Shown here piece after piece: positions 4,257 to 8,060 of a stretch of 64,000 nt of DNA. This DNA comes from Euryarchaeota archaeon UBA552 (GTDB lineage Archaea; Thermoplasmatota; Poseidoniia; Poseidoniales; Thalassarchaeaceae), in NCBI GenBank assembly GCA_002499585.1, contig DAMH01000027.1, positions 63,789 to 127,788 of the forward strand. The letters are read 5' to 3'. Numbering within the stretch: position 1 is the stretch's first letter; each line of letters opens with the position of its first letter. The notes under the pieces were generated by a model that saw only the letters and a list, made by a program, of their open reading frames with translations, had not been told where the DNA came from and did no database searches. Both the position numbers and the translations under genes were made by a program.

Positions 4257-5429
4257 TCATCCGATAAGGACGACTTGACCTGTCCAATGGAAGACCAGTA
4301 GATCATCTGAAAGGGATTTTCCAAAGCCAACTATCATTCCCCCACTGGTGCCGATGTATTCTTCGGACCAGACCCCAGATTGTTCACGGAGGACCCAAAT
4401 TGAACCTGTGCAGAAGTCTCCATAGAGGAAACCCTCTTGCAGTATTTCGGGACCCCAATCCATCCAGAACCCGCCTGTTATGGAGCAATTTCCATTCTCA
4501 TGAGGATATACTACGACAGGATCGGTGTAGTTAGGTCCAACTTCTGGTTGGCTGGGTCTGCATTTTCCATCATCGGCGAACTCATAGAAACCCTCCCTGT
4601 CGGACCATCCGAGGTTAGCCGGAACGGTAAGATTCACCAAATTGACCTCTTCCCAGCAGGCTTGTCCGACATCCGCTATCCACAGTCCTCCGTCTGGGTC
4701 TAAGTCGAATCTCCATGGGTTCCTCAGCCCATGATGAAGGACATATGGATCACCGGCTCCAGTATCAACAGCTGGCGACACCGTGTTGTCTTCGAATTTA
4801 ACGTAATACATGGTCCCCAGTGGATTTGACGAATTTTGCCCGTTCAACAAGGGGTCGTCAGAGCTGCCACCATCTCCGATGCCCCAAAGGAAATTGTTGT
4901 CACCTGCGTGTATTAGGTGCCCTCCATTGTGGTTCCTGTATGGTTGGTTAACCCTCAATAGTACCGTTAGTGTGTCAAGATCAAAGGTATCCATTTCGTC
5001 GATTTTAATTGAGGCGAGGATCAGGTCGGATTGGTTCGGCCCCTCGCAGGTACCGTCCTCGATGTACGAGATCAGTACAGTCCCCGTGTTCTCAAAATCT
5101 GCCTCTAAGGCCATTCCAAGCAGGCCCTGTTCCATGTGACATCTATTCACCACTTCACTGAGGTCAACGGCCCAGTCGAGAGTTTGCCCGTCCCAGGATT
5201 TAACATATCCATTCAGGTAGAGGATCCACTGGTTACCAGTGAGAGGGTTGATCAAAGACCGGTGGGGGGTCTCGGATCCCTCTATGATAGTTGTGCAACC
5301 AAGCTCGTCCAATTCCAATTCGCATTCTGAACTTGTAGGTTCCGGCCATTGAAAGCCGTCATCTTCCTCAAAACATCCTGAGAATGCTGCAGATATGATT
5401 AGTAACGCTACTGCTGCATTGACCCTCAT
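4257..5429 (-). CDS. PQQ-dependent sugar dehydrogenase (GSDH/HHIP-like beta-propeller) lipoprotein
   Basis: Lipobox-like FSGC, EQGLLGMAL, NHNGG, GLRNPWRF, DVGQ..WEEVN, SITGG, YGDFCTG. Start at ATG 5429 behind a GGGTGAGGGGG RBS. Confidence 0.85.
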   Translation of the reverse strand: MRVNAAVALLIISAAFSGCFEEDDGFQWPEPTSSECELELDELGCTTIIEGSETPHRSLINPLTGNQWILYLNGYVKSWDGQTLDWAVDLSEVVNRCHMEQGLLGMALEADFENTGTVLISYIEDGTCEGPNQSDLILASIKIDEMDTFDLDTLTVLLRVNQPYRNHNGGHLIHAGDNNFLWGIGDGGSSDDPLLNGQNSSNPLGTMYYVKFEDNTVSPAVDTGAGDPYVLHHGLRNPWRFDLDPDGGLWIADVGQACWEEVNLVNLTVPANLGWSDREGFYEFADDGKCRPSQPEVGPNYTDPVVVYPHENGNCSITGGFWMDWGPEILQEGFLYGDFCTGSIWVLREQSGVWSEEYIGTSGGMIVGFGKSLSDDLLVFHWTGQVVLIG

Positions 5430-5436
5430 ATCCCCC

Positions 5437-6513
5437 TCACCCAAAGTAAGCTTGGATGCCCGGGACATTTGATACTGCTGCTCCGTAGGTTCCCAAGTGG
5501 TCCTCAGCTGTGGTAGGTATCATGTCATCAGTGTAGAGAAGATCCCAGAGAATTTCCTTTCCTTCTGCGTCATCGCTCAATGACCCGAGGGCGGTCTGTA
5601 CAAGTGCAACAGCGTCAGCATCGAGGTAATTCGGGGCATTCACATCCGGGTTGTACAACGCGGGGTGACTTGGTGCTTGCCCAAATGGTTCCAACATCAC
5701 AACCTCGTCACGATCTAGGCACCAATCGTATGCATCGCTTCCCGTGCAGTATGAGTCATAGACAGTATCTTTGATGAGGGCTATATCGCCCGTTCCATCC
5801 ATCATACATCTCATGGCTCCCTTGTACGAAGAATAGGGGGTGCTGCCTCTGGGTATACTGGAATCAGGAGAGAAAAAGCCATGGACAGTAGCTTCCAAGG
5901 AATCTATTTCTGACGGGTCGCCCTTGACTTCAGCGTATCCGTTACCGATGAGGTATCCCATAGGTATCAGCATTCCTGCAGATTTGAGCCATCCTGTGTG
6001 GCATGATTTCTTGCCCCTCATCAGCTCAAACGGGTCGGTGTCGGGGTCGTCATCCAAGTAAGCGGCTGCCATATCAGAATCAGCTTTGACCCATGCTGCT
6101 GCATTGTAGTATGTTCTACCGTCTGATTTTGTCTCGGCAGCTAGGACGCCGAGGTCGTACACCTCCCAAGCCAGCCAGCCAGCTGCGCCGTCGACGAAGC
6201 CGATATCGGCATTGCCTTTGTCGATCGCCTCTATCAATGGTACGGAATCGGTCACAGGATATATCTCTACGTCCCAATCATCGCCCATTAGGGAACTCAT
6301 TTTATCGGCGAGTTGTTGTGGGTTGGTGTCCCAAACCTGGTAATCTTCTTGCACTTGGTATGCTATGGTCAAACAATTTTTGTCAGGATCGCATTCCTCG
6401 TAATCGGGTTCGTAGACCAAGAGGTAGAAACCACCACCTCCGAGGACGAGCATTACAGCGATTGATATGGCTTTGTTGGCGGCGGCCCACTGTGCCGCAT
6501 TCTTCAGAATCAT
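5437..6513 (-). CDS. Membrane-anchored single-lobe transferrin-like binding protein (PhnD/SsuA/transferrin superfamily)
   Basis: N-terminal TM anchor; motifs FVDG, TYYNAAAWVK, KKSCHTGWLKSAGMLIP, YSSYKGAMRC..DG.GDIALIK, PSH and DLLYTD match transferrin lobe motifs. Confidence 0.85.
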   Translation of the reverse strand: MILKNAAQWAAANKAISIAVMLVLGGGGFYLLVYEPDYEECDPDKNCLTIAYQVQEDYQVWDTNPQQLADKMSSLMGDDWDVEIYPVTDSVPLIEAIDKGNADIGFVDGAAGWLAWEVYDLGVLAAETKSDGRTYYNAAAWVKADSDMAAAYLDDDPDTDPFELMRGKKSCHTGWLKSAGMLIPMGYLIGNGYAEVKGDPSEIDSLEATVHGFFSPDSSIPRGSTPYSSYKGAMRCMMDGTGDIALIKDTVYDSYCTGSDAYDWCLDRDEVVMLEPFGQAPSHPALYNPDVNAPNYLDADAVALVQTALGSLSDDAEGKEILWDLLYTDDMIPTTAEDHLGTYGAAVSNVPGIQAYFG

Positions 6514-6534
6514 GCCTATCCCACATAGGGGGGT

Positions 6535-6542
6535 GAAATAAA
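6535..6542 (-). promoter_or_regulatory. Putative TATA box of the transferrin-like gene
   Basis: TTTATTTC on the minus strand, about 22-29 nt upstream of ATG 6513; spacing fits a leaderless or short-leader archaeal promoter. Confidence 0.55.
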
Positions 6543-6561
6543 TTTTAGGCTTCCCTAAAAT
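6542..6561. promoter_or_regulatory. DtxR/SirR/MntR-type operator (ATTTTAGG-cttc-CCTAAAAT)
   Basis: Perfect 8-bp inverted repeat with a 4-nt spacer containing the TTAGG-N4-CCTAA core; abuts the TATA box and covers the BRE position. Confidence 0.75.
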
Positions 6562-6587
6562 AACAAATGTGGTCTTGACAGATTACA

Positions 6588-8060
6588 CTAAGGATCGGTG
6601 AGAAGACTGGTTTCTGTGAAGAGGCTCGGCCCACTGGCCAAGTAGGCCATAACGCCCCTCCTGGATCTGGAGTCTTCGGGCGTGGAGTTATTTCCTGTGG
6701 CACACGATCCTGTGCAGCCGTCAGCAAAAGAGATGAAGATCCGTCCTTCCCTATCTATGTGTAGGTCGTTGAAATCTAGTAAATTACGATTCGACCCACC
6801 TATATCACGGCAATCACCACTGTTGAGGCAGATACTGCCGATCTGGACAGGGTCACTGGTTACCCTGTATGTGTGAAAAGTCGGTTTCTCATCAAGGGCA
6901 TTGAGACTGATTGTCACGTATAGGTGGTAACTGACATTTGCGTTTGCGAAGTGGGCATTGCCGTCCCATTCCTGGCCATCAATGTCTGGTTGACCTAGTT
7001 CGCCTGAGTCTTCGCTCCCTAGGTATGTGACTGCGATCCTCCCTGGGTCCCCGGCGTCAACCTGTGGGAAAACTGAGGAGATGATCTCCACCGGGCTGAT
7101 TCGGGTACTAGTTTGGTCCCATGTTAAACCCGAGTCTATGCTCCTAGACATGTACACCCCCTCGTCTGAGCCTGTCCATATGTGGTATGCATTGGACTGA
7201 GTGTCCGTTGCAACCTCCGAGTTTTTTCTGGGATAGGGTGTGCCGGCATCTTCACCCATTGTCTCTGCGAACCAAGAAAATCCGTTGTCCTTGGATACTA
7301 TTACTGTTGGAGTCTCGACTCTGGGGGTTACATAGACCGTACCGTCCGGGGCGGAAGTTATTGCCCCATGCAGGCCTCCGTCGGTCGTGGCCAGCCCGAT
7401 TATTTGTCCACCAGCCTCGAACGATGCACCGCCATCGAAGCTGGTGAAGCAGAATATTCCAGCCAATTTGTTGTAACAGTAGTAAACTGCTTGCTCGTAG
7501 ATTTGCTGGGAAAATTGGCCCGCTAAACCATACCCGATATCAGTCCACGGACCTGTTGCCAGCTTGATGTGGTCATTGATTGGCGTGGTTCCAGAGTCGT
7601 GTGGATTACCTAACCAGGTTTCACCGTCATCGTCGCTCCAGCAAATCCATGATGTCTCCAATCCCTGCATTTGGACGTTGAATATTCGGTCTGTAACGGG
7701 GTCGACCCAACCCCAAGGATCATTGGTCTGAAATGCGCACATTGGCCCTTTCACGTCTTCCCAAGATCCGCCGTAATCGCACGACCTCATGACCTTCTCG
7801 AAAGCAATGAAAAACACACAACCTGATGATGTAACCCCTATGCTGGGCTCCGCTCCATCCTGTCCTACGTCACTGAGGTTGAAGTTTAGCTGCAACGGGA
7901 GATTATCCGACGGCAGCCCGTCTGGACCAGTGACGAATATTCCTTCATTGCCTGTCTCTGGATCTGTTTGAATCGGGGTGTCTTCATTTTGAATACATCC
8001 CGAGACGGCCATTGTGGCCATCATCAAAGAGAAGGTCAAGGCGATCAAGGGGTGCTGCAT
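6588..8060 (-). CDS. Secreted BNR/Asp-box repeat beta-propeller lipoprotein (sialidase-like fold)
   Basis: Lipobox VSGC; five Asp boxes (SCDYGGSW, SDDDGETW, SFDGGASF, SKDNGFSW, SIDSGLTW). Confidence 0.85.
   Translation of the reverse strand: MQHPLIALTFSLMMATMAVSGCIQNEDTPIQTDPETGNEGIFVTGPDGLPSDNLPLQLNFNLSDVGQDGAEPSIGVTSSGCVFFIAFEKVMRSCDYGGSWEDVKGPMCAFQTNDPWGWVDPVTDRIFNVQMQGLETSWICWSDDDGETWLGNPHDSGTTPINDHIKLATGPWTDIGYGLAGQFSQQIYEQAVYYCYNKLAGIFCFTSFDGGASFEAGGQIIGLATTDGGLHGAITSAPDGTVYVTPRVETPTVIVSKDNGFSWFAETMGEDAGTPYPRKNSEVATDTQSNAYHIWTGSDEGVYMSRSIDSGLTWDQTSTRISPVEIISSVFPQVDAGDPGRIAVTYLGSEDSGELGQPDIDGQEWDGNAHFANANVSYHLYVTISLNALDEKPTFHTYRVTSDPVQIGSICLNSGDCRDIGGSNRNLLDFNDLHIDREGRIFISFADGCTGSCATGNNSTPEDSRSRRGVMAYLASGPSLFTETSLLTDP

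Follow-up and report, generated by a model that had tools for sequence, protein, structure and literature searches.

A putative DtxR-type operator on the promoter of a transferrin-like gene

Within a 64,000-nt stretch of DNA from Euryarchaeota archaeon UBA552 (contig DAMH01000027.1; the whole stretch is referred to below as the window), a short palindrome lies on the promoter of a gene for a transferrin-like protein. The organism belongs to the Thalassarchaeaceae (MGIIb) within the Poseidoniales, i.e., the Marine Group II (MGII) archaea. We consider it very probable that this element is a repressor operator of the DtxR type, most likely responsive to iron, at which the single DtxR-family regulator of the genome would cover the transcription factor B (TFB) recognition element (BRE) of the promoter. 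That a protein binds here, that it needs a metal to do so, that this metal is iron and that the outcome is repression are what we infer from sequence.

Read on the plus strand, positions 6542 to 6561 spell ATTTTAGG-CTTC-CCTAAAAT, a perfect inverted repeat with 8-bp arms around a 4-nt spacer. Its inner part, TTTAGG-CTTC-CCTAAA (6543 to 6558), constitutes the core operator, a 16-bp palindrome of a size that fits one repressor dimer, and positions 6545 to 6558, TTAGGCTTCCCTAA, match the single-dimer consensus TTAGG-N4-CCTAA with 0 mismatches. The transferrin-like gene (5437 to 6513) is encoded on the minus strand and starts with an ATG at 6511 to 6513. On the same strand, a predicted TATA-like box, TTTATTTC (6542 to 6535), abuts the palindrome, with one T common to box and arm; it lies 22 to 29 nt upstream of the ATG, the two being separated by 21 bases. 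The promoter-proximal arm, CCTAAA on the minus strand (6543 to 6548), lies at the BRE position, immediately ahead of the TATA box, and is predicted to function as a BRE. Judging from the distance between TATA box and ATG, the transcript is probably leaderless or carries a very short leader. The element as a whole falls into a 74-nt intergenic gap (6514 to 6587), 27 nt past the TAG stop codon (6590 to 6588) of an upstream open reading frame (ORF) on the minus strand. An earlier, sequence-only reading of the window had already described this repeat, its abutting box and their spacing from the start codon, with all coordinates and distances correct.

Exact copies of the operator word are over-represented and lie ahead of genes

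Within the window itself, the palindrome does not stand out. Perfect 8+8 palindromes with a 4-nt spacer were seen once versus 0.75 times expected, those with spacers of 0 to 10 nt 20 times versus 11.9 expected, and TTAGG-N4-CCTAA with at most one mismatch 3 times versus 1.3 expected; the repeat listing of the window holds 205 short inverted pairs. We therefore rejected any claim to significance from the window alone, as neither the bare palindrome nor the 14-bp word exceeds chance there.

At the level of the genome, a 1.36-Mb assembly of 79% completeness in which the window corresponds to C18:63789-127788, we used 40 second-order Markov genomes as the null model. The exact word TTTAGG-N4-CCTAAA is present in five copies versus 0.025 expected, the maximum in any Markov genome being one. 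The genome-wide scan for TTAGG-N4-CCTAA by which the sequence-only reading had hoped to define a regulon likewise returned five copies, each of which extends to TTTAGG-N4-CCTAAA, and delimits a candidate regulon. One-mismatch copies are absent (0 versus 1.6 expected) and two-mismatch copies stay near expectation (26 versus 32.5), which marks the motif class as sharp rather than fuzzy. In addition, all five exact copies are intergenic and sit 0 to 63 nt ahead of start codons, in a genome of which only 9.9% lies outside long ORFs. The two-mismatch look-alikes are nearly all found inside ORFs; three intergenic ones (C18:192698, C18:223995, and C30:60592) may be listed as candidates, within an overall two-mismatch count that is at background.

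Conservation of the site across Poseidoniales

Among 31 relatives, the exact word was found 61 times versus 14 times for a reversed control, and the first motif match fetched from almost every relative genome adjoins the ortholog of the transferrin-like gene. The orthologs themselves were collected as a set of 80 loci with protein identities of 45 to 86%, 76 of which had enough upstream DNA, and searched up to 200 nt upstream. The exact site was present in 74 of these 76 loci, with a one-mismatch version in one and no site in one, and it remained exact down to an ortholog of 45% protein identity. In three relatives without an exact copy, the corresponding place holds a site that deviates by one or two mismatches; in a fourth (G015), the available upstream sequence is too short. 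The site that the sequence-only reading had singled out in one promoter has thus proven to be conserved upstream of orthologs, in exact or near-exact form.

What is conserved, more precisely, are the arms, which are invariant across loci; the flanks diverge and are unrelated between genera. The conserved arms measure 6 bp, whereas the two additional outer base pairs per arm that extend the window copy to the perfect palindrome at 6542 to 6561 are unconserved, the flanks being merely A/T-biased, with position 0 almost never a C. The 8-bp arms of the earlier reading are correct for the window copy, but not as the conserved unit. The 4-nt spacer is variable yet non-random, showing a preference for G/T-Y-R-C/A. 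Invariant arms that do not covary are the signature of a DNA site read by a protein, not of an RNA stem.

This pattern is also informative as to a structural or accidental origin of the palindrome. Its location 27 nt past a stop codon, followed by TTTATTT, might suggest an RNA hairpin that either terminates the transcript of the upstream 490-aa gene or serves as a regulatory structure in the 5′ region, and chance alone would yield roughly one bare 8+8 palindrome per window. Yet the RNA fold of the intergenic region is unremarkable (z = -0.72), there is neither a terminator-like site nor an Rfam match at E ≤ 1, and the arms are invariant where a stem should covary. Moreover, the site persists where the upstream neighbor is divergent, so that there is no transcript to terminate, and the genome-wide excess and strictly promoter-bound location of the word rule out coincidence. 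Based on the fold, the Rfam and terminator searches and the invariant arms, we rejected the RNA or terminator reading; hairpin and chance palindrome alike strike us as scarcely credible.

The promoter geometry is conserved as well. In the orthologous promoters of MGIIb, the operator abuts a TATA-like box in all cases, with the box (TTTTATNT, TATTAT or TTTAAG) starting 0 to 2 nt after the operator, and in 42 of the 74 loci (MGIIb) the ATG follows 30 to 31 nt past the operator end. This arrangement suggests that a leaderless mRNA is made from the transferrin-like promoter. In MGIIa (Poseidoniaceae), by comparison, there are two sites 33 to 34 bp apart with the TATA box between them, such that the second site lies over the expected transcription start.

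Between the TATA box and the ATG, the window displays a further small inverted repeat, CCTAT-GTGGG-ATAGG (6517 to 6531, minus strand). At the same place, relatives from the genus have CCTAC-N6-GTAGG, and most MGIIb orthologs have a conserved TTYCGG approximately 14 nt ahead of the ATG. The position of the repeat is where MGIIa has its second operator; it may represent a decayed half-site or a proximal promoter element.

Two loci in the ortholog set come from nominally bacterial assemblies, namely, L043 (NYYT01000035.1, "Pedosphaera sp.") and L077 (PARX01000028.1, "Rhodobacteraceae bacterium"). Both are transferrin-like loci of the MGII type (83% and 65% identity, respectively) with the archaeal operator, and their contigs have probably been mis-binned into bacterial metagenome-assembled genomes.

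A candidate regulon in the genome

The five exact sites precede the transferrin-like gene, the gene of an FEA1-related lipoprotein (two sites), a gene for an M28-peptidase/ZIP transporter, and an acyl-CoA dehydrogenase gene. The FEA1-related lipoprotein (426 aa) matches the Pfam family Fea1, "low iron-inducible periplasmic protein," and scores 364 bits against NCBIfam FEA1_rel_lipo (cut-off, 250). Its promoter carries the two sites 45 bp apart, in a layout matching that of MGIIa; that is, the second site is located between the TATA box and the start codon, at the expected transcription start. The M28-peptidase/ZIP gene encodes a protein of 767 aa in which an M28 peptidase is fused to a ZupT-like ZIP transporter, and the site of this gene ends 3 nt before the ATG. 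In this genome, the gene lies 87 kb away from the transferrin-like gene, each having its own copy of the operator. The fifth site resides in the gap between the acyl-CoA dehydrogenase gene and a DUF1295 gene.

Both the layouts and the targets bear on the direction of regulation. Archaeal factors bound upstream of the BRE and TATA box often activate, which we count in favor of the possibility that the factor, bound just upstream of the TATA box, recruits the TATA-binding protein (TBP) and TFB and switches the operon on when metal is plentiful. A precedent is given by TroR, which activates dpsA in Haloferax volcanii (PMC10783522). In the present promoter, however, the arm overlaps the BRE position instead of lying upstream of it. 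The second site between TATA box and start codon, as seen both in the paralogous FEA1-like promoter and in the MGIIa orthologs, corresponds to the geometry of a repressor, and the targets are uptake-type genes, such as are repressed by TroR and IdeR. Since these three features favor repression over activation, we deem an activator role very unlikely.

Outside the window, a variant with a 5-nt spacer, TTTAGG-GTTAA-CCTAAA, was noticed at G000:C18:133677-133693, 70 nt upstream of a gene for a succinate dehydrogenase/fumarate reductase flavoprotein (sdhA-like). Through this variant, a respiratory enzyme rich in iron might be connected to the regulon.

The DtxR-family regulator and its linkage to the operator word

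As noted by the sequence-only reading, the window lacks a DtxR gene. The only copy in the genome is located on another contig (G000:C14:49862-50509), and thus elsewhere in the genome, where that reading had advised looking for it. It encodes a protein of 216 aa with matches to Fe_dep_repress (1.9e-12) and Fe_dep_repr_C (6.8e-13); its PDB matches are all DtxR, IdeR or MntR. An ortholog of this regulator exists in 15 of 15 near-complete relatives. Fur was not found in the 79%-complete genome.

The operator word is found across the phylum Thermoplasmatota, and its neighbors there are telling. Outside MGII, the exact word is found 8 to 19 nt before dtxR in three Thermoplasmatota genomes (L182 to L184), at the head of feoA-feoB-dtxR operons in six genomes from four families (L186 to L191), and at the head of a sufC-sufBD-ZIP-dtxR operon (L192). 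In MGIIa, it precedes the genes for the FTR1 iron permease and for ferrochelatase. Counting linkages between word and dtxR within 2.6 kb, we saw at least 10 versus approximately 0.2 by chance, the latter being our own estimate, which takes each 2-Mb genome to hold approximately 1.3 sites and 1.5 dtxR genes. Not every case is independent phylogenetically, yet at least four distinct gene arrangements are represented. Linkage in cis to dtxR, feoAB, FTR1 and ferrochelatase ties the word to the DtxR family and to iron. The metal-uptake role that the earlier reading saw supported by the operator fits with this company: the FEA1-related lipoprotein and the ZIP transporter in this genome, FTR1, ferrochelatase and feoAB in relatives.

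For a view of the metal sites, we aligned 24 regulators, anchored on IdeR of Mycobacterium tuberculosis. In DtxR numbering, the canonical metal ligands of DtxR/IdeR are M10, C102, E105 and H106 together with H79, E83 and H98. The MGIIa regulators keep H79, E83, H98, C102, E105 and H106, and those of the other MGIIb genera keep M10, C102, E105 and H106. Within the genus to which the window belongs, the DNA-binding domain is 75 to 82% identical to that of the window's protein, as compared to 22 to 37% for the C-terminal FeoA/SH3-like domain, and exact operators persist in all of the ligand-poor genomes. Given the conserved DNA-binding domain, whose DNA-binding helix is kept, and the persisting operators, the own-genus regulator has, by prediction, surely retained DNA binding. 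A separate MntR-like paralog, with the pattern D8, H77, E99, E102 and H103, is present in two relatives.

Weighing the proposed iron-responsive operator

Several observations weigh against an iron-responsive operator of this one regulator. To begin with, DtxR-family genes occur in 120 of 121 Thermoplasmatota genomes; presence/absence co-occurrence can therefore not assign the site to a DtxR factor, which is why we relied on cis-linkage instead. Twelve MGII dtxR loci contain no site in a regulatory position at two or fewer mismatches. One regulon member, the acyl-CoA dehydrogenase, is without an obvious metal link, and ZIP transporters carry zinc and manganese, too. As for the regulator itself, the proteins of the window's genus have S, Q, H or A at position 10, Q at 79, no His at 98, and A, S or T at 102, and three of them are also devoid of E105/H106. 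The best NCBIfam and PDB matches of the window genome's regulator lean toward MntR or generic DtxR and stay below every equivalog cut-off. Metal sensing may thus be altered in this genome.

At one of the MGII dtxR loci (L037), two words with two mismatches were seen, approximately 0.9 kb upstream and inside the gene. Autoregulation of dtxR in MGII was considered and dropped, having found no support in the 12 dtxR loci.

The empty dtxR loci, together with the want of a direct protein-site link in MGII and the uninformative ubiquity of DtxR, could mean that a transcription factor of another family binds the same word and that the DtxR homolog regulates other genes. Against this stands the fact that the word is exactly that of two DtxR-family sites defined by experiment and is repeatedly linked in cis to dtxR at the frequency and in the variety of arrangements described above. 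In addition, no Fur was found in the 79%-complete genome. We regard the involvement of another family as very improbable.

A different question is whether a DtxR-type operator might here serve a signal other than iron, be it manganese, zinc, no metal at all, or another cue received through the divergent C-terminal FeoA/SH3-like domain. The absence of M10, H79, H98, C102 and, in some cases, E105/H106 from the own-genus regulators would fit with this, as would the gap in identity between their two domains. The same can be said of the top NCBIfam match of the regulator, a Thermococcales-type MntR (96 bits), and of the ZupT-like ZIP in the regulon. However, the word is that of TroR and IdeR and not the manganese-linked haloarchaeal SirR motif, TTTwGAnnnnTCwAAA (PMC10783522). 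Likewise, in other genomes the regulon comprises feoAB, FTR1, ferrochelatase, FEA1 and suf; an iron site of the Cys102 type is retained by the orthologous regulators throughout the rest of the order; and the two relatives with an MntR-like paralog have that protein in addition. On balance, a non-iron signal appears unlikely.

If the regulator of this genus has indeed changed, one rather speculative scenario, to which we assign a low probability, is that it has kept its DNA-reading head and its operators while discarding the canonical Fe/Mn ligands, placing an iron regulon under a new mode of sensing, for instance by an altered ligand sphere, by another signal acting through the fast-evolving FeoA/SH3-like domain, or by a partner protein. 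If true, this would provide a natural case of a metalloregulator whose wiring has changed under a constant regulon.

Returning to the iron-responsive operator that we favor, the earlier proposal of repression by a metal (Fe or Mn) is upheld as far as the iron-type word and the metal-linked regulon are concerned; metal dependence as such stays a prediction, for a regulator that is poor in ligands in this very genus.

Gene neighborhood

The putatively regulated gene encodes a 358-aa transferrin/PhnD-like substrate-binding protein, for which the Pfam families Phosphonate-bd (1.1e-16) and Transferrin (1.6e-16) score equally; PhnD-type matches in NCBIfam are weak and under cut-off. Elsewhere in the order, two tandem transferrin-like matches were observed in single frames of 704 to 723 aa (G020:C1:606170-607885; G023:C43, G027:C16, G014:C10, and G018:C9), so that transferrin-like proteins with two lobes may be encoded behind the same operator in MGIIa and in some genomes of MGIIb. 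Directly downstream in the window follows a GSDH-like gene (4257 to 5468, minus strand; glucose/sorbosone dehydrogenase fold, Pfam GSDH 2.5e-18), which overlaps or abuts the end of the transferrin-like gene. This synteny is kept in relatives, and the two genes are probably co-transcribed.

On the other side of the operator lies the 490-aa ORF (6588 to 8060, minus strand), which is without a family match in Pfam or NCBIfam. It occupies this position in G006, G008 and G011 only, and is 81 to 87% identical in three genus members; other members of the genus have a divergent M28-ZIP gene on that side. The 490-aa gene is probably not part of the regulated unit and may be a lineage-specific insertion. 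In three genus members (loci L018, L019 and L023 of G001, G010 and G007, respectively; around positions 1470 to 1525 of each locus), the transferrin-like and M28-ZIP genes diverge from a gap of approximately 50 nt with one operator and one TATA-like box in common, which looks like a bidirectional, co-repressed promoter. The window also encodes a class I lysyl-tRNA synthetase, which helps to assign the genome to the MGII archaea.

Proposed mechanism and significance

According to the model we propose, one repressor dimer would recognize the two half-sites, TTTAGG and CCTAAA, 4 bp apart. As the promoter-proximal arm takes up the BRE position and adjoins the TATA box of the transferrin-like/GSDH operon, a bound, metal-loaded dimer would prevent TFB and TBP, and hence RNA polymerase, from assembling there. 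Once the co-repressor metal, most likely Fe(II), runs low, the dimer would come off and allow transcription of the operon, probably into a leaderless mRNA. A small iron-acquisition regulon would be under the control of this operator, further including the FEA1-related operon with its two sites, the M28-peptidase/ZIP gene, and the promoter region of the acyl-CoA dehydrogenase gene.

Marine Group II archaea rank among the most abundant microbes of the surface ocean, and we know of none in culture. Our literature search found no paper linking Poseidoniales to DtxR, to FEA1 or to the regulation of iron or metal uptake. An operator that is conserved throughout the order opens a route, by sequence only, to listing the iron-responsive genes of MGII, candidates for which are the transferrin-like protein, the FEA1/phytotransferrin-related lipoprotein, ZIP, FTR1 and ferrochelatase. 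For the transferrin-like protein, the operator supports a role in iron independently of protein sequence, and metatranscriptomes could be read for iron stress of MGII with the regulon genes as markers.

Comparison with known operators

The closest likeness is to TroR of H. volcanii, whose motif from chromatin immunoprecipitation sequencing, TTTAGGC-NNN-CCTAAAANAN, mediates iron-dependent repression as shown by promoter mutagenesis (PMC10783522). In the window, plus-strand positions 6543 to 6562 read TTTAGGC-TTC-CCTAAAATAA and match this motif at every specified base. The two systems have in common the 16-bp core, an archaeal host, a DtxR-family factor and iron-uptake targets, as well as tandem sites approximately 30 to 45 bp apart at some promoters; repression under iron-replete conditions has been demonstrated in H. 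volcanii and is predicted here. They differ in that the TroR motif lies approximately 100 nt upstream of start codons, whereas the window site directly adjoins its TATA box, 30 nt ahead of the ATG, and in that H. volcanii has three DtxR paralogs as opposed to one in this genome. The regulons differ as well, that of TroR consisting of siderophore and ABC genes in place of transferrin-like, FEA1-like and ZIP genes.

The iron box of IdeR and DtxR in Actinobacteria uses the same half-site word with the same 4-bp spacing per dimer. Half of the classical 19-bp iron box (TTAGGTTAGSCTAACCTAA) suffices for one dimer of IdeR to bind, and the 14-bp sequence TTAGGNNNNCCTAA has been proposed as a general IdeR/DtxR consensus (PMC8464063). 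Together with the TroR motif, this consensus backs what the sequence-only reading had stated, namely, that TTAGG-N4-CCTAA is a DtxR-family core site. The metal ligands of IdeR (H79, E83, H98, C102, E105, and H106) are the very ones kept by the MGIIa orthologs of the regulator. Unlike the classical actinobacterial box, which consists of two overlapping 14-bp sites for two dimers (TTAGG-TTAG-S-CTAA-CCTAA), the window site would accommodate one dimer: neither its spacer, CTTC, nor its flanks, ATAAAT/ATAACA, supply a second overlapping half-site pair. The recognition helix also differs, reading N/S-P-A-S-V-T-E-M in the window-type regulator versus S-G-P-T-V-S-Q-T in actinobacterial IdeR/DtxR, and the promoter is archaeal (TATA/BRE) as opposed to bacterial.

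The manganese boxes of the SirR/MntR type share their general layout with the window site, 6-bp arms around a 4-bp spacer, along with a factor from the DtxR family. They deviate at the two inner arm positions, which are GA/TC there and GG/CC here; the arms TTTAGG/CCTAAA do not match TTTwGA/TCwAAA, so the SirR/Mn label is not the most fitting one for the window site. Of the "DtxR/SirR-type" title under which the element was first described, the DtxR half stands, in its TroR/IdeR iron type, while the haloarchaeal SirR/Mn half fits less well.

With respect to layout rather than site sequence, a further comparison is offered by MDR1 of Archaeoglobus fulgidus, a DtxR homolog that represses a metal-transporter operon via core-promoter operators. 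Those operators cover the transcription start and the region beyond it, and what they block is the recruitment of polymerase, not the binding of TBP and TFB; the single site in the window is instead on the BRE side of the TATA box. In sum, the window site is very probably an operator for one dimer of a DtxR-family regulator, of the TroR/IdeR type, a kind already known in Archaea. Operators of this sort are ordinary for archaea; what makes this one valuable is the regulon to which it points, along with the odd, ligand-poor regulator found in this genus.

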